From positions 407,315 to 471,314 of the forward strand of contig CP055307.1 of assembly GCA_013374835.1 (NCBI GenBank): DNA of 64,000 nucleotides. Reading direction: 5' to 3'. This DNA comes from Candidatus Woesebacteria bacterium (GTDB taxonomy: Bacteria > Patescibacteriota > Microgenomatia > UBA8517). Each line of letters opens with the position of its first letter. The first letter of the stretch is position 1. Under the pieces are notes generated by a model that was not told the DNA's origin, ran no database searches, and was given only the letters and a program-made list of their open reading frames with translations. This document shows, piece after piece, positions 55,988-62,365 of this stretch. The position numbers and the translations under genes are program-made.

Positions 55988-56674
55988 ATGATTAAGTTGT
56001 CCTATTTTTTAAAAGGAGCTTTCGTAGGATTTTTTATTGTTCTAATTTTTGCAATTTCTATGGGGGTAAAGGACACGAAGGCTTGTTATTGTACACCAAA
56101 ACCTACTGCTTCAACAAGCCCCACGCCTACTTCTGAGCCGACTTCTGAGCCAACATCCAAACCTACCTCCGAGCCTACAGGAGAGCCGAGTGCTTCGCCC
56201 GTTCCTACACCTGCTCCTTCCGAGCCTGCGCGCGGAGGAACAAGTCCTGCCGGGCCTCCGGTTTGTACGGATCCGGCGCCAAATGCGCCATACTTGATAA
56301 GCGCTACAAGAAAGGGCGTTGCAAGCATTGAGATAGTTTGGCAGAAGGTTGAGAATGCAAACGATTATGCAATTTTTTACGGGTCAAATCCCGGTGAGCA
56401 TATTTACGGCGTGCCGAGTACAGGGGATACTGATAGGTTTATTGTCAATGGATTAACAAGCGGTTGTTTTGTTGTCCGAGCTGTAAACGGATGTGGGGTA
56501 AGTGCTCCTTCAAATGAAGTTTGTACGGGCGGGACAGCGGGTGCTGTGCTTGGAGCTAGCACGCTTGCCGATACCGGATCTGGTGAGGACTTTTATAATG
56601 CCTTTTTTATTATAGGTGCTTTGGTAACTTCGGCGGGTGTCAGACGAACTTTTGCCAAAAATAAAGAAAACTAA
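55988..56674 (+). CDS. sortase substrate: secreted PT-linker + fibronectin-III-like domain protein with an LADTG sorting signal
   Basis: N-terminal TM/signal, then TSEPTSEPTSKPTSEPTGEP linker, then an Fn3-like domain. C-terminus LADTG + hydrophobic helix + RRTFAKNKEN (classic cell-wall sorting signal, LAXTG class). Confidence 0.7.
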   Translation: MIKLSYFLKGAFVGFFIVLIFAISMGVKDTKACYCTPKPTASTSPTPTSEPTSEPTSKPTSEPTGEPSASPVPTPAPSEPARGGTSPAGPPVCTDPAPNAPYLISATRKGVASIEIVWQKVENANDYAIFYGSNPGEHIYGVPSTGDTDRFIVNGLTSGCFVVRAVNGCGVSAPSNEVCTGGTAGAVLGASTLADTGSGEDFYNAFFIIGALVTSAGVRRTFAKNKEN

Positions 56675-57194
56675 TTTTTTCTTTTTAGCTTTCGGAATTA
56701 TTCTTCTATCGGTTCCAATTTATTTTCGTATCCGTGAGTTTGGAAAGCTTTATGTTTCGCCGGATCGGGAAGCTATAAAGCAGACCGAAGCTATTACATA
56801 TAATCCTTATATTATTGAAATTGAGAAGATTGGTTTGAAATTGGAGGTTATTGAATCTGGCATTGTTGGCGGTGTGTGGGAGGTGTCTGATAGATACGCA
56901 AACCACCTTGATATTTCGGCGAATCCGGGAGGAGGCGGGAATATTCTCTTATACGCTCATAATAGGGATAATCTTTTCGGTCCTATAAAGTTTTTAAAAA
57001 AGGATGATTTAATCAAAATTCTTGACGCATCTGGAAAAGAGCATGCATATCGTGTTGAGAGCGCTTTTGAAACAGATCCTTCGGATGTAAAAATAGCCTC
57101 AAATACAGAGAGCGAAACGCTTACGCTTTATACTTGCAGCGGGCTTTTTGACAGGAAAAGATTTGTTATAAGAGCAGTACCTGAAAGTATGTAA
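56637..57194 (+). CDS. sortase family transpeptidase
   Basis: N-terminal TM, His motif LLYAHN, TLYTCSG (TLxTC active-site Cys), and a conserved Arg in RFVIRAV. Confidence 0.8.
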   Translation: MSDELLPKIKKTNFFFLAFGIILLSVPIYFRIREFGKLYVSPDREAIKQTEAITYNPYIIEIEKIGLKLEVIESGIVGGVWEVSDRYANHLDISANPGGGGNILLYAHNRDNLFGPIKFLKKDDLIKILDASGKEHAYRVESAFETDPSDVKIASNTESETLTLYTCSGLFDRKRFVIRAVPESM

Positions 57195-57265
57195 TCTAAA
57201 TTACTGATAGTTTTTTTGTTATTGAATAGTGTATAGTGTATCGAGAGAAAGGAGGTGATAAGAAT

Positions 57266-57751
57266 ATGAAGAAAGTATTAGCAGGTTTAGCTGCAAGCAC
57301 CCTCCTTTTGGTGGTTGCTGCACCGGTTAGTGTGATGGCTTGGGGCGGATTTCCTTTTCCTTGGCCTAATCCCACACCTGAGCCAACAACAGAAGCCGTT
57401 GTGAATAACAATGCTTATGTTAAAAATGTGGTTGACACATATGCCGGTTCTGGTGGCAATTCAGTATCCGGCTTCCTTAACAAAGGAGTTATTAAGACCG
57501 GTAATGCGTGGGCATATGCTGATGTAGCAAATACTGTCAACATGAATGCTTTGGGATGTAATTGTTACAACGATCTTACGATAAATAACAGAGCAACTGT
57601 TAAGAATTATTTAGATACTACTGCAAAAACGGGACACAATTATGTTGGCGGCAGCTGGGTTAACGGTTTTGTTAAGACCGGCGCTGCAGATGCAATGTCT
57701 GTTGTTGAGAATATGGTGAACACCAACATGGTTGGTGTATCAGCTGACTAA
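57266..57751 (+). CDS. secreted protein with two ~45-aa GGN repeats
   Basis: Strong SD AGGAGGTGA. Signal peptide, then PTPEPT, then repeats NNAYVKNVVDTYAGSGGNSVSG...KTGNAWAYADVANTVN and NNRATVKNYLDTTAKTGHNYVGG...KTGAADAMSVVENMVNTN. Confidence 0.6.
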   Translation: MKKVLAGLAASTLLLVVAAPVSVMAWGGFPFPWPNPTPEPTTEAVVNNNAYVKNVVDTYAGSGGNSVSGFLNKGVIKTGNAWAYADVANTVNMNALGCNCYNDLTINNRATVKNYLDTTAKTGHNYVGGSWVNGFVKTGAADAMSVVENMVNTNMVGVSAD

Positions 57752-57821: not shown

Positions 57822-59765
57822 ATGAATGAAAAGCTGAAACGAAAAATATCAATTTTAGTTATATTTACTCTTCTTTTTGCGCGCACAACTCCTTATGCAA
57901 TATATGCTACTGAAACTTTTGATACCGAACCTCAAACCGTTGAAACAATTGAAGTAACTACTGAAGAAACTGCCGGGGAAACCGATGTGGTTATTGAGAA
58001 TGAAGCAGAGGTTATTGATGAGATTACAACAGAAGCCGAAAGCGGGGAGAATGAAATTGTTAGTGAAAGTCCTACGCCGTCACCCAGTCCGTCACCTACT
58101 TCATCCCCTGTCGCGGACGAGGTGAACTCTTCACCAACTGCTGAGGCTACTCCCAGCCCCAGCCCCAGTCCCAGCCCTACTTATTCTTCCCAAGTAGAAA
58201 CGGGAGACAGCATATCTTTCGTTGAGACCGAGAACCAAGTAAATTCTACGGAGGTAAATAGCGAGGTGGTTTTTAAGACTCTTAATATCTTTTTTGCAGA
58301 GGGGGTTAATTTGGCCATGGACTCATGGCCTTTGATAGAGGAGATTGTTTCAAATGGGGGCAAAGAGGAGATTATTAATGCAGTAATTCTTGAAAATAAT
58401 AATTATGCATATATTAGTAATGAAATAGTAAGTATTGCTGATACGGGTGGGAATACGGCTACGGGAAGTGCTGCTATCATTGAAACGGGGAATGCTTATT
58501 CAGTTGTATCACTTCTTAACCGCGTTAATACCACAATTATTGATTCGAAAATTTATATTGTTACGATTAATATTTTTGGTGAGTTGGATGGGGATATAGT
58601 CTTGCCCGATATTTTGGATAAAAAAGCTTGCACAGAGTGTGGGGGAGCTTTTGTGGATATTGAAAACAATGCCGAGGTTGAAAATGTTGTGACTTCAAGC
58701 GCTGATAGCGGCGGCAATACAGCAGTAGCTGAGGATGCGGATATTGATACGGGAGATGCTTTGTCCATTGTAAATTTAATTAGTGTGGTTAATTTTAATA
58801 TTTTGAATAGTTTTTTCAGGCTTCTTTATATTAATAATTTAGGTGAGTGGAGCGGAGAGCTTTTGGGCTGGGGAGATGAGGAAAGCTCAGTGGGTGGATG
58901 TACGGGCTGTGTAAAAGGGAGTGATATTGCCAATGAAGCTTATGTTTACAACAATGTTTACTCTTTTGCTAATACGGGCGGAAACAGCGTTTCTGGCGGA
59001 GAGGCAAGCATAAAGACCGGGAATGCGGTAAGTGCTGTTTCAATCGTTAATTTTATAAATACTACGATTAAGAATTCTTTAGGATTTTTGGGATTTGTGA
59101 ATATATTTGGGAAGTTTAGCGGGAATATTGGTACAATGAATGTACTTTATCCTTCCCCAAGTCCTTTTTCCGAGTCTGCGATTGGAGGTATGAGTTTATC
59201 TTCTGAAAGCATTAAAGAGGCTGGTGGAAAACTTGAGGTTTATCAGAAAAACAATGTAAATGATTTTGTTTATCCCGGGGATACTGTAACCTTTTTTGTA
59301 GATGTAAAAAATGTCGGAACAGGTAAGGTTTATGGAGCTACTTTGGTACTAAGCCTAATAAAAGACGGAGAGGATATGGGAGGCGGAATAATACCCATTG
59401 GGGATATTGAGGCGGGACGCGGGTTTAAAATAACCACTGGTCTTGTTTTATCAAAGAATGCACTGGCAGGGAATTATCTCGCGCATGCTGAAGTTTTTGG
59501 GATAGTAGGACCTGATGACAGTGAGATATCCGCTTATTCCGATAGCTTTTTTGAGATAAGAACTAAAGGTGGGTTGGTTAATAATTTAGTCAAAAACGGC
59601 GAGGAGGAGGCTCTGCCTGTTGCTAGTGCAAGCGAGGGGCAGGTATTAGGTGCGGCTTCTACGGTGAAGAAAGATTATATGATTTACTATGTGCTTCTTC
59701 TTATGCTTACGAGTGCATACTTGTCTAATTGGTATAAGATGAGAGTAAAGGAGGGCGTCTTATGA
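57822..59765 (+). CDS. large surface protein: acidic/PS-rich linker, three or more GGN repeats, a CARDB/DUF11-like domain, and a C-terminal TM anchor
   Basis: Repeats ...IADTGGNTATGSAAIIETGNAYSVVSLLNRVNTTI, ...SADSGGNTAVAEDADIDTGDALSIVNLISVVNFNI and ...FANTGGNSVSGGEASIKTGNAVSAVSIVNFINTTI; DTVTFFVDVKNVGTGKVYGATLVL (CARDB-like); C-terminal YMIYYVLLLMLTSAYL. Confidence 0.6.
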   Translation: MNEKLKRKISILVIFTLLFARTTPYAIYATETFDTEPQTVETIEVTTEETAGETDVVIENEAEVIDEITTEAESGENEIVSESPTPSPSPSPTSSPVADEVNSSPTAEATPSPSPSPSPTYSSQVETGDSISFVETENQVNSTEVNSEVVFKTLNIFFAEGVNLAMDSWPLIEEIVSNGGKEEIINAVILENNNYAYISNEIVSIADTGGNTATGSAAIIETGNAYSVVSLLNRVNTTIIDSKIYIVTINIFGELDGDIVLPDILDKKACTECGGAFVDIENNAEVENVVTSSADSGGNTAVAEDADIDTGDALSIVNLISVVNFNILNSFFRLLYINNLGEWSGELLGWGDEESSVGGCTGCVKGSDIANEAYVYNNVYSFANTGGNSVSGGEASIKTGNAVSAVSIVNFINTTIKNSLGFLGFVNIFGKFSGNIGTMNVLYPSPSPFSESAIGGMSLSSESIKEAGGKLEVYQKNNVNDFVYPGDTVTFFVDVKNVGTGKVYGATLVLSLIKDGEDMGGGIIPIGDIEAGRGFKITTGLVLSKNALAGNYLAHAEVFGIVGPDDSEISAYSDSFFEIRTKGGLVNNLVKNGEEEALPVASASEGQVLGAASTVKKDYMIYYVLLLMLTSAYLSNWYKMRVKEGVL

Positions 59766-59997: not shown

Positions 59998-60026
59998 TTG
60001 ACAGGGTTTTTTTAATAGAGTATATT
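59998..60026 (+). promoter_or_regulatory. sigma70-type promoter TTGACA-N17-TATATT upstream of the TasA-like gene
   Basis: Exact -35, 17-nt spacer and a TATATT -10, located 117 nt upstream of the ATG at 60143. Confidence 0.5.
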
Positions 60027-60090: not shown

Positions 60091-60113
60091 AGCCGCCAAA
60101 GGGCGGCTTTTTT
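60091..60113 (+). promoter_or_regulatory. leader hairpin-terminator (GCCGCC-AAAG-GGCGGC + T6) between the promoter and the RBS; candidate attenuator
   Basis: Perfect 6-bp GC stem followed by TTTTTT, 10 nt before the SD GGAGAAGGAGGTG. Confidence 0.5.
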
Positions 60114-60142: not shown

Positions 60143-60742
60143 ATGAAAAGAATATTAGTGAGCTTAATGATGATTACCCTTGTTGCTACACTAGCAGTTG
60201 GATCAACCAGAGCTTATTTTCTAGATACGGAAGATAGTAGTGGCAACACATTTTCTTCAGGTTCCTTAAATCTTACTTTGGATGGAAATAATGGGACTTC
60301 GGTTGTTAAGTGGAATTTGAATAATCTAAAACCCGGTAATCAGCCAAAGGGTACATTTAACCTTGCTAATACTGGAAGCGTTTCTGGTTATTTAGATCTT
60401 GAAAATATTGTCGTCACAAGTTATGAGAATGGGATTATTGAGCCCGAGTCTGCCGACGGTGACAGTTCGAGCTCCGAAGGAGAGCTTGAAGACGTACTTA
60501 ATTTACGCCTATTTCATGATTTAGATTGTAATGGATGGATTGGAACAGGAGAGAGCACGTTCTTTAATGGTAAGGTAGGTACTATCGCTTCTAATTATGA
60601 TTTAGATATTTTAATTCCTGCTGGCGGTAGTACTTGTATTACTGGTATTTATGATTGGTGGGACACTGCTGACGACAATAAGGCGATGACAGATTCGTTT
60701 GTTTTAGATATGACTTTTGAATTGAGACAGTCGGCAGATTAG
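60143..60742 (+). CDS. TasA/CalY/camelysin-family protein with a SipW-cognate-type signal peptide
   Basis: MKRILVSLMMITLVATLAVGSTRAYFLDTEDSSGNTFSSGSLNLTL...NLNNLKPGNQ...FNLANTGSVS parallels the B. subtilis TasA N-terminus (AAFNDIKSKDATFASGTLDLSA...NLSNLKPGDK...FENNGSLA). Confidence 0.75.
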   Translation: MKRILVSLMMITLVATLAVGSTRAYFLDTEDSSGNTFSSGSLNLTLDGNNGTSVVKWNLNNLKPGNQPKGTFNLANTGSVSGYLDLENIVVTSYENGIIEPESADGDSSSSEGELEDVLNLRLFHDLDCNGWIGTGESTFFNGKVGTIASNYDLDILIPAGGSTCITGIYDWWDTADDNKAMTDSFVLDMTFELRQSAD

Positions 60743-60796
60743 TTTTGGTTTATAGGTTGTGCAAAATAATTAATTTGCACAACCAAATAAGCTTAA

Positions 60797-62365
60797 ATGA
60801 AAAAAATTACTAATATAATTTACTGGCTTGTTTTTTTGTTTCTTGTGCTTATTGCCGGGCTTACAAGCCTATCTACTTTTGATTTTGCCGGAGGGTATCG
60901 GCTTTATAACGTATTGTCCGGATCGATGTCTCCTACGATCCCTACTGGAAGCATTGCTCTGGTGGGCCCTGTTTCTAATTACAACAAGGGGGATGTTGTT
61001 ACTTTTAAGTCGGAGGCAGACCGTAATGTAACAAGACCTAAAAACACTACAACACATAGGATTGTGGATATAAAAGATGAGGGGGGCGTGGAGAGATTTG
61101 TTACCAAAGGTGATGCGAATGAGACGACGGATCCGGAGAGTATTGACCGCGGGCTTATTATCGGTAAAGTTTATTTCCATCTGCCGCTATTTGGATATGC
61201 CGTAAATTTTGCAAGGACACAGATTGGACTTATTGTTTTAATTATTATTCCTGCAACTATTATTATTTATAGCGAGATGGTAAGCATTAAAAACGAGGCA
61301 AAAAGGCTTATTGTTGAGAGGCGAAGCCGTAAGCTTTCTTCACGGGAGAAGATTGTGGAGGCAATCGGTGAGGAGGAAATAAAGGCTGAGCGGGGAATTA
61401 AGCGCTTTTTTAAAAGATATGGTATCTTGAAAGTTCTTTTTTTGACTTTTGGGGTAATAAGCTTTAATACCGCGACAAGCGGGGCTTATTTTACATCACA
61501 GGTAGTTCTTTCGGGGAATAGCTTTTCTGCGGGATACTGGGAGGATGATGTAACAGGCGTGGTGATAAATGAGGTTTATTATGACGTGGGCAGTGCTTGT
61601 GGTAATGACGGGGGAGCAAACCCAGATGAATGGGTCGAACTTTATAACAATAACAGTTTTGATGTGGACCTTAAAGATTGGAGTTTGACTGATAATAATG
61701 ATACGACAATTATTCATAGCAACTCTGTTTTTGTTCCGGCACACGGATATGCTGTGATTTCAAAGTCTGCAAATACTTGGAGTAATGGGTGTTTTGATCC
61801 TCCCTCTGGTGCTGTGCGCGTTTATACAGGTCAAAGAATCGGTAACGGGCTTGCTAATGGCGGAGATCGGCTAATACTTAAAGATTCGACAGGGCTTGAG
61901 GTAGATGCTGTAAGCTGGGGTAGTGACTCTTATGCTTTTGGTAGTGGTAATGGTGTGGTTTTGACCGGGGATGGCAAATCAATGGCAAGAAAAACGGCTG
62001 GTGTTGATACTGATTCTGCCACTGATTGGGAGATACTTGATAGTCCAAATCCAGGGACAAATCCGCATAGTACAATTGAAACAAACCTTGATCTTTTTAG
62101 AGATGGAGCTAATTTAGGCTTTAGCGTGACCGGTAGTGGAGTAGCTAAATTTGAAAGATATGAATATATTATTACTTATGATTCAGATGCGGGAAAGCAG
62201 GGAATTGAGGGAAAGGGCGAGATTTTAGGGAACGAAATAAAAGTACAGGGGATTTATCTTGGGCTTTGCTCGGATGTTTGCGTGCCTTATGGGGATATCC
62301 GGAATATAGTCTTAAAGGTGCGCCTTATTGGAGATGTGGTTAGAAGCTTGATGATTAATGGCTAA
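60797..62365 (+). CDS. SipW-type (ER/archaeal-type, S26B) signal peptidase fused to a C-terminal TM + SipW-cognate-like motif + lamin-tail-domain extension
   Basis: N-terminal TM, SGSMSPTIPTGS (Ser nucleophile box), HRIVDI (His). Then a second TM, then SGAYFTSQVVLSGNSFSAGYW, then the LTD-like VVINEVYYDVGSACGNDGGANPDEWVELYNNNSFDVDLKDWSLTD. Confidence 0.7.
   Translation: MKKITNIIYWLVFLFLVLIAGLTSLSTFDFAGGYRLYNVLSGSMSPTIPTGSIALVGPVSNYNKGDVVTFKSEADRNVTRPKNTTTHRIVDIKDEGGVERFVTKGDANETTDPESIDRGLIIGKVYFHLPLFGYAVNFARTQIGLIVLIIIPATIIIYSEMVSIKNEAKRLIVERRSRKLSSREKIVEAIGEEEIKAERGIKRFFKRYGILKVLFLTFGVISFNTATSGAYFTSQVVLSGNSFSAGYWEDDVTGVVINEVYYDVGSACGNDGGANPDEWVELYNNNSFDVDLKDWSLTDNNDTTIIHSNSVFVPAHGYAVISKSANTWSNGCFDPPSGAVRVYTGQRIGNGLANGGDRLILKDSTGLEVDAVSWGSDSYAFGSGNGVVLTGDGKSMARKTAGVDTDSATDWEILDSPNPGTNPHSTIETNLDLFRDGANLGFSVTGSGVAKFERYEYIITYDSDAGKQGIEGKGEILGNEIKVQGIYLGLCSDVCVPYGDIRNIVLKVRLIGDVVRSLMING

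Follow-up and report, generated by a model that had tools for sequence, protein, structure and literature searches.

A stretch of 64,000 nt from the genome of a Candidatus Woesebacteria bacterium (assembly GCA_013374835.1, contig CP055307.1, positions 407,315-471,314 of the forward strand; the whole stretch is called the window below) has a G+C content of about 38% and contains two adjacent open reading frames (ORFs) of interest. The first encodes a protein resembling the Bacillus subtilis fibre subunit TasA, and the second a SipW-type signal peptidase that continues, within the same polypeptide, into a protein with a lamin-tail domain (LTD). Both ORFs sit within a plus strand run of genes encoding secreted or surface proteins. 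The closest genome match to the window, from Candidatus Woesebacteria UBA1430 (locus L001), is 84-93% identical in nucleotide sequence across the region. Public annotation of such proteins currently reads just 'signal peptidase I' or 'lamin tail domain-containing protein'. The features of the locus are collected in Table 1.

The first gene product is a TasA-fold subunit with a SipW-type signal, as a first-pass annotation made from the sequence alone had proposed. The PF12389 (Peptidase_M73/TasA) model gave 42.4 bits against a cutoff of 22.5, with only residues 2-93 aligned, and the same family was found in 46 of 46 homologues. The SipW-cognate signal model TIGR04088 gave 21.3 bits with the isolated N-terminus and 17.6 bits with the whole protein (cutoff 19). 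A custom signal hidden Markov model (HMM), trained only on the N-terminal signals of neighbouring TasA-like genes, detected the protein with E 2e-20 in a scan of the 169 window ORFs. The AlphaFold2 (AF2) model, built with 34 homologues, had a predicted local distance difference test score (pLDDT) of 84 with residues 23-37 disordered, and its best Foldseek match in the PDB was the TasA fibre 8aur (E 2.3e-4, TM-score 0.46), followed by matches that included the TasA monomer 5of1, a moderate similarity. By analogy with TasA the precursor is predicted to be cut at A24↓Y25. The TasA-like protein would polymerize by donor-strand exchange, a prediction for which the observations are a donor-strand-type motif and a disordered N-terminus. 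A 190-residue database protein (P0121), which is 100% identical over 95% of its length, apparently starts at Met10 and lacks the basic n-region of the signal. The longer, 199-residue form is supported because a ribosome-binding site, GGAGG, lies 8 nt upstream of 60143.

The SipW gene follows directly upon this gene with its SipW-cognate signal. Its product had been described in the first-pass annotation as an S26B peptidase with a Ser/His active site, extended by an additional transmembrane helix, a second cognate-type motif and an LTD-like fold, and each of these parts was recovered. The strings SGSM, TSGAYFTSQVVLSGNSFSAG (residues 227-246), INEVYYD and WVELYNN are all present in the translation. 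The archaeal-type signal peptidase I model TIGR02228 matched residues 2-161 with 109.4 bits (cutoff 51.85) and matched all 41 homologues of the fusion, in which S43 (of SGSM), H87, D106 (of GDAN) and D112 are invariant. Aligned with human SEC11C, S43, H87 and D106 fall on its conserved motifs SGSM, HR and GD(A/N)N, and the top Foldseek matches of the peptidase part were 7p2q and 7p2p (SEC11C and SEC11A; E 1e-5). A Ser-His catalytic character is that of endoplasmic reticulum (ER)-type signal peptidases (PMC10269814). The LTD was matched by PF00932 at residues 254-375 (66.2 bits, cutoff 34.3), and Foldseek placed it with the lamin immunoglobulin folds 3jt0, 1ifr and 6ghd (lamin B1 and lamin A/C) at probability 1.0. 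The AF2 model of the fusion had an overall pLDDT of 77; the peptidase and the LTD (about 90) were confident and residues 227-251 were disordered. Thus, PF12389, TIGR02228 and PF00932 all scored above their cutoffs, as did TIGR04088 on the TasA-like N-terminus. By the same kind of score the peptidase and the TasA-like protein fall within the broad families and are not orthologues of the Bacillus proteins, because the equivalog cutoffs were not reached: Bacillus SipW (NF046067) gave 105.1 bits with the fusion against a cutoff of 190, and B. subtilis TasA (NF046066) gave 28 bits with the TasA-like protein against a cutoff of 450.

Table 1 Features of the TasA-like/SipW-LTD locus and its surroundings (window coordinates; aa, amino acid; TM, transmembrane helix).
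Feature	Position	Strand	Basis or remark
TasA-like ORF, 199 aa	60143-60742	+	
SipW-type signal peptide, aa 1-24, predicted cut TRA↓YF	60143-60214	+	TIGR04088 and custom signal HMM
Mature TasA/camelysin-like subunit: donor-strand-type N-terminus YFLDTEDSSGNTFSSG (aa 25-40), then beta-sandwich	60215-60742	+	PF12389, AF2, Foldseek
SipW-LTD fusion ORF, 522 aa	60797-62365	+	
SipW-type (ER/archaeal, S26B) signal peptidase I domain; TM1 aa 3-28, S43/H87/D106, TM2 aa 141-162	60797-61282	+	TIGR02228, fold, alignment
Basic linker, aa 163-208, predicted cytoplasmic	61283-61420	+	Charge count, positive-inside rule
Predicted internal signal peptide: h-region/TM3 aa 209-227, c-region S228-G229-A230 (P3-P1)	61421-61486	+	Hydrophobicity, conservation, split relatives
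Donor-strand-like motif YFTSQVVLSGNSFSAGYW, aa 231-248, directly after predicted cut	61487-61540	+	Family consensus
Lamin-tail domain, aa 254-420	61556-62056	+	PF00932, AF2, Foldseek
Unnamed C-terminal beta module, aa 421-522, with G.C...C hairpin (LGLCSDVC), then stop codon	62057-62365	+	
Sigma-70-like promoter match, TTGACA-17-TATATT	59998-60026	+	11/12 positions; in 378-nt gap 5' of tasA-like gene
GC-rich hairpin and T-run, terminator-like	60091-60113	+	In leader just 5' of ribosome-binding site; read from sequence
Intercistronic stem-loop, tasA-like/sipW fusion	60755-60784	+	Minimum free energy -21.7 kcal/mol, z = -4.8
Putative sortase substrate, 228 aa, Pro/Thr/Ser-rich	55988-56674	+	
Sortase	56637-57194	+	Pfam Sortase, 74 bits

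A single ORF of this composition could in principle be a sequencing or assembly frameshift, as the first-pass annotation had cautioned, or a decaying pseudogene of two genes. We consider this extremely improbable. L001 carries the same uninterrupted fusion ORF at 90% identity, in an independent assembly with many substitutions and no stop codon, and about 40 divergent fusions have conserved linkers, motifs and domains. Moreover, all domains of the window protein are intact and were modelled with high confidence. What such an artefact has in its favour is that relatives exist in which two genes are split with overlapping stop and start codons, so that one indel could fuse them.

The fusion has many relatives. 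A search of 5.8 billion proteins gave 171 relatives at E<1e-5, dozens of which span both peptidase and LTD; the few that carry names are Levy-, Woese- and Beckwithbacteria or 'Patescibacteria group'. With residues 1-250 as query, an exhaustive search gave 18,296 relatives (E<1e-3); the nearest 150 representatives at 50% identity include 33 that exceed 300 residues, and in most of the long relatives examined SipW leads through a basic linker and a third hydrophobic helix to the conserved motif and a cargo. SipW, linker, TM3, motif and LTD occur together in at least 40 more distant homologues, and the fused form persists in homologues with identities between 90% and about 30%. In 12 related loci a tasA-like gene lies directly upstream of sipW on the same strand. 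The first-pass annotation could not place the architecture in described tapA-sipW-tasA systems. That part stood, in that a full-text literature search, which left most subscription journals outside its scope, gave no paper in which SipW is joined to a substrate or an LTD. The architecture is not rare, however, but recurrent in Patescibacteria.

Comparison of fused and split loci gave the clearest view of what the second gene contains. Six loci have the single-ORF form (the window, L001, L002, L003, L006 and L007), and seven have a split form (L004, L005, L008, L009, L011, L014 and L020) in which a standalone sipW encoding 177-241 residues is followed by an overlapping gene, the overlap being 4 nt in three of the seven. 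In the split loci the product of the downstream gene is an LTD protein whose N-terminus consists of an ordinary signal peptide and a motif of the [YF]F.D...N.F type; that of the L014 protein, for example, reads GTHS↓YFSDSKVSGVNTFTAA. Because of these split-gene loci, helix 209-227 and motif 228-248 of the fusion would be the former signal peptide and early mature region of a substrate. The second gene thus reads as an intact ER-type SipW joined to what appears to be the complete preprotein of a SipW-cognate LTD protein. A crude tree of SipW domains (neighbour-joining/Fitch; 26 fused/split changes in 135, a crude count) suggests that fusion or fission happened repeatedly.

The internal signal is recognizable at the level of the family. 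The custom HMM, although trained on N-terminal signals, had its best match at the position of the internal motif in essentially all 41 fusions, with scores of up to 30 bits, and TIGR04088 matched 11 of the 41 family members (best E 3e-6). In the scan of the 169 window ORFs the internal site of the fusion came after the TasA-like protein with E 0.009, and the next best ORF had E 0.65; no further SipW-cognate substrates were found in the 64 kb with this model. The family consensus of the motif is [YF]F[ST]D.E.S..N.F.A[GA].W, and in the window protein the cut-site motif reads SGA↓YFTSQVVLSGNSFSAG. Position P3 is T or S in 38 of 41 fusions, P1 is A or S in all of them, P1' is Y or F in 33 and P2' is F in 34, after which the D, E, S, N, F, A and W/F positions are conserved. 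In B. subtilis TasA is cut at TWA↓AF, where the P2' Phe is poorly handled by LepB and is processed by SipW (PMC10269814); the cut positions of the fusions match this pattern, with Phe at P2'. Cleavage at A230↓Y231 by the SipW domain is thus predicted and, on these patterns, likely.

From the positive-inside rule the linker is predicted to lie in the cytoplasm, with TM3 inserted from inside to outside like a signal peptide. Between the end of TM2 and the cut site (aa 162-230) there are 16 K/R against 8 D/E residues. K/R exceed D/E in this segment in 40 of 41 homologues, with segment lengths of 32-126 residues. An alternative that bears on the linker is that the cargo is also, or instead, made by internal initiation, for example at the GTG of codon 187 (61355-61357) after the string GGGAGAAG. 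We think this very improbable. A Shine-Dalgarno (SD)-like GGAG does stand 6 nt upstream of the in-frame GTG, but a linker rich in GAG and AAG codons yields SD-like strings by chance. In 28 of 41 fusions, moreover, the part of the segment before its last 22 residues contains no Met, and the position is not conserved. The apparent start site, SD-like string and GTG together (61340-61357), is probably a by-product of the GAG/AAG-rich codons.

Given the split relatives, which encode a SipW-cognate preprotein, and the conserved -3 and -1 positions, self-cleavage of the fusion is the best-supported reading, and the suggestion of self-processing made in the first-pass annotation gains from both lines of evidence. 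A reading that differs is that the internal signal stays uncleaved, so that TM3 is a permanent anchor holding the LTD and the C-terminal module fixed outside the cell, where the motif would tether the first TasA-like subunit or recruit substrates. Such a fused and tethered nucleator would solve the problem of anchoring, as neither the TasA-like protein nor the fusion has a sortase signal or other anchor, and TapA has been reported to co-localize with the membrane (PMC10151520). The window motif has also drifted from the consensus. We nevertheless regard the uncleaved form as unlikely, because the small residues at P1 (41 of 41) and P3 (38 of 41) are as in the neighbouring N-terminal signals that are cleaved, and split-gene relatives make the same protein as an ordinary secreted preprotein.

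Our preferred reading of the locus as a whole, which we hold to be probable though by no means secure, is that it encodes a patescibacterial form of the TasA/SipW/TapA fibre system whose dedicated peptidase is produced in one chain with one of its substrates. TM1 would run from inside to outside, leaving the catalytic domain outside the cell, and TM2 would return the chain to the cytoplasmic linker. TM3 would then lead outward again, which would put the LTD and the C-terminal module outside the cell. In a first step, which we consider likely, the SipW domain would cleave two sites: TRA24↓Y25 of the TasA-like precursor and, in cis or in trans, SGA230↓Y231 within its own chain. The products of the latter cut would be a three-TM peptidase left in the membrane and a released LTD protein of about 292 residues. 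In a second step, which is plausible, the new N-terminus YFTSQVVLSGNSFSAG would be a donor-strand-only element that fills the groove of a TasA-like subunit, the cargo thereby nucleating or capping the fibre as does the TapA N-terminus, and the end formed by the LTD and the C-terminal module would be used for anchoring or adhesion.

The donor-strand role of the cargo toward the TasA-like fibre is drawn by analogy and is plausible. In TasA the donor strand is formed by residues 28-38, directly after the cut (PMC9674648). For TapA, residues 44-57 suffice for biofilm formation, and donor-strand complementation starts the fibre (PMC10151520). The motif segments of both the TasA-like protein and the fusion are disordered in their AF2 monomer models. 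In the cargo the motif is followed by a conserved W and a linker and lacks the TasA-like 'LDL' strand of the subunits, because of which the cargo would be donor-only like TapA. The fusion may function in the manner of TapA without belonging to the TapA family: TapA families were absent from the Pfam and NCBIfam scans, and the TapA structures 6HQC and 6QAY were absent from the fold matches of the fusion.

Comparison with L001 brought out a replacement within the tasA-like gene. In blastn alignments of the window with L001 the similarity ends at 60215 and resumes at 60772 (L001 5399-5975), with flanks that are 84-90% identical. Position 60215 is where the codons of the mature TasA-like protein begin if its signal peptide is cut as predicted. 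The two TasA-like genes have nearly identical signal peptides and mature domains that are unrelated in sequence, and the closest relative of the mature domain of the window comes from a different lineage, L020. The swap looks like the cassette replacement of a surface-exposed subunit.

Several observations weigh against our preferred reading. The isolated internal segment of the window protein (aa 205-250) had no TIGR04088 match at E<10, because of which the claim of an internal signal rests on family-level and synteny evidence. The window motif is degenerate, as it lacks the consensus D234, E236 and S238, and with 9.2 bits in the custom HMM is a weak member of the family. Residues 227-251 were not placed near the active site with confidence by AF2. 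Peptidase recognition alone could account for the conserved motif. Finally, the mature TasA-like domain of L001 has been replaced together with its donor motif, and the cargo motif there differs by one substitution. A swapped subunit with an almost unchanged cargo motif argues against a tight co-adaptation of donor and groove.

The last two points would fit a reading in which the fusion is cleaved and the cargo has nothing to do with the fibre, the motif serving SipW recognition only and the LTD protein being an independent adhesin or ligand binder. This would also agree with the diversity of the cargos to which SipW is fused (LTD, fn3/Ig-like, TasA-like or the C-terminal module only) and with the occurrence of LTDs in many unrelated secreted bacterial proteins, ExeM matching two of the 41 fusions. 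We consider it somewhat unlikely, because the tasA-like gene is strictly syntenic in 12 loci and the motif extends about 16 residues past the cut, beyond what a peptidase usually reads, and coincides with the donor strand of TasA. Moreover, its donor-only logic matches that of TapA.

Within the fibre reading, a more specific 'one-shot' primer can be imagined, which we think quite unlikely. Each SipW would cleave itself in cis and release just one TapA-like nucleator at the very site where the TasA-like protein is processed, so that the peptidase stoichiometrically sets the number and position of fibres, and the LTD with the Cys-pair module would be the adhesive or anchoring end. Since near-identical strains differ by a swap of the mature domain of the subunit, such fibres would then serve episymbiotic Patescibacteria as a variable organelle for attachment to the host.

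The C-terminal module of the fusion is beta-rich and has an invariant G.C...C hairpin and two conserved Tyr residues. About 40 SipW cargos, whether fused to the peptidase or encoded separately, end in this module, which co-occurs with any middle part: LTD, fn3/Ig-like domains, TasA-like domains or none. The window copy had no match in NCBIfam and 24 members had none in Pfam, and a sequence search of the PDB gave no relative (best E 0.82). The module was modelled with a pLDDT of 45-73. That it could be a cryptic TasA domain was rejected, as hhalign against the TasA-like family gave a probability of 0.2%. A role in anchoring or adhesion would be a guess. The module, of about 100 residues and new, marks this class of SipW cargo. 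In three proteins that were found with the segment 60797-61546 (P0178, P0192 and P0235) SipW is fused to a TasA-like domain ('...TLDF...') followed by the same C-terminal module, the peptidase thus being joined directly to a protein resembling a fibre subunit.

Four related loci have a fourth gene after the cargo (L007 7100-8335, L014 3493-4758, L002 7094-8494 and L012 6765-8072). It encodes an ordinary signal peptide, a weak match to the TasA core that lacks the donor-strand region, and an LTD. The TasA-core match covers PF12389 positions 48-146 and was seen in L007 only (21.4 bits, cutoff 22.5). The product of the fourth gene could cap the opposite fibre end as an acceptor-only protein. No such gene, with a TasA-like core lacking a donor strand and an LTD, was found in the window, where the only LTD matches were those of the fusion.

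The two genes are preceded and separated by candidate regulatory elements. The promoter-like match upstream of the tasA-like gene is the best such site in the 55.5-64 kb region, in which the total number of sites is not above that in shuffled sequences. The leader that follows folds with z = -2.7 and is 94% identical to that of L001, above the identity of the flanking coding DNA, and the stem at 60091-60113 is conserved, the loop being the part that differs. The leader may act as an attenuator or have another regulatory role. The Rfam model Phe_leader, found in a search of the leader and intergenic regions, was rejected (23 bits against 55). None of 200 shuffles was as stable as the intercistronic stem-loop at 60755-60784, which is retained in L001 through a two-sided, compensatory change from U-A to C-G. 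It is speculation that this hairpin sets a high ratio of subunit to peptidase and cargo; the TasA:TapA ratio in B. subtilis is about 100:1 (PMC10151520).

Upstream of the locus the 3' end of the gene for the 228-residue protein is overlapped by the sortase gene. The C-terminus of this protein, VLGASTLADTG followed by a hydrophobic stretch and a basic tail, resembles a sorting signal of the LPXTG type with the variant LADTG. A 647-residue protein (57822-59765) ends similarly in 'VLGAAST' and a hydrophobic tail. This ORF and that at 57236-57751 encode secreted proteins without a Pfam family, both conserved in L001, and have in common the repeated motif N.A.V.N.V...A.TGGN...G...I.TGNA......N.VNT. 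Within the smaller ORF, positions 57321-57699 form a second gap in nucleotide similarity to L001; the gap covers the mature part of the protein, and the signal peptide is conserved. On the other side, the ORF after the fusion corresponds to a DUF2207 gene of L001.

The closest parallel among known systems is the tapA-sipW-tasA operon of B. subtilis. Like the locus described here it has a dedicated ER-type SipW, a TasA-fold major subunit whose donor strand begins at the SipW cut with an aromatic residue at P2', and an accessory secreted protein that shares the signal type of the subunit and has a donor-like N-terminus. Because the stop codon of tapA and the start codon of sipW overlap (PMC10151520), accessory gene and sipW are translationally coupled, as here. 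The differences are that here the accessory protein is fused to the SipW C-terminus via an internal signal peptide, that the gene order is tasA-like, sipW, accessory, that the body of the accessory protein is an LTD plus a new module whereas that of TapA is a V-set Ig domain, and that the host belongs to a Patescibacteria lineage. The B. cereus sipW-calY1-bc1280-calY2 system likewise combines SipW with Peptidase_M73 subunits and has no TapA homologue (PMC10151520). It has neither a fusion nor an LTD, however, and no counterpart of its chaperone CapP/BC1280 was identified at our locus. In archaea, AbpA and AbpB of Pyrobaculum and other archaeal TasA homologues form donor-strand fibres of the TasA superfamily for which a TapA-like initiator has been proposed. 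The operons of these archaeal bundling pili lack a dedicated peptidase gene, whereas here the peptidase is dedicated and fused to a substrate. The paper on the bundling pili notes PF12389 homologues in Patescibacteria, and apart from that note TasA/SipW systems in Patescibacteria were not discussed in the texts covered by our literature search.

Among peptidases, SEC11A and SEC11C (7P2P and 7P2Q) are the best match to residues 1-160 in both structure and PDB sequence. SEC11, in contrast, works within a four-subunit complex, has a single transmembrane helix and is not fused to a substrate. The SipA/LepA-type protein of Streptococcus pyogenes, a signal-peptidase-like pilus chaperone, is not known to have the catalytic residues and belongs to a sortase-mediated pilus system. 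The fusion retains all of its catalytic residues. SipA (PDB 4N31), which was among the fold matches of the fusion, has a signal-peptidase fold that is used for surface fibre assembly, and its PDB entry describes it as a signal peptidase homologue essential for pilus polymerization.

We know of no description of a signal peptidase that is translationally fused to its own substrate via an internal, apparently cleavable signal peptide. The fusion offers a natural single-chain system in which to examine cis action by ER-type signal peptidases and the features that they read on the primed side of the cut. Our preferred reading would also extend TasA-type donor-strand fibres, with TapA-like logic and unrelated accessory domains, into the Patescibacteria, for which the attachment structures in the literature we found were type IV pili.

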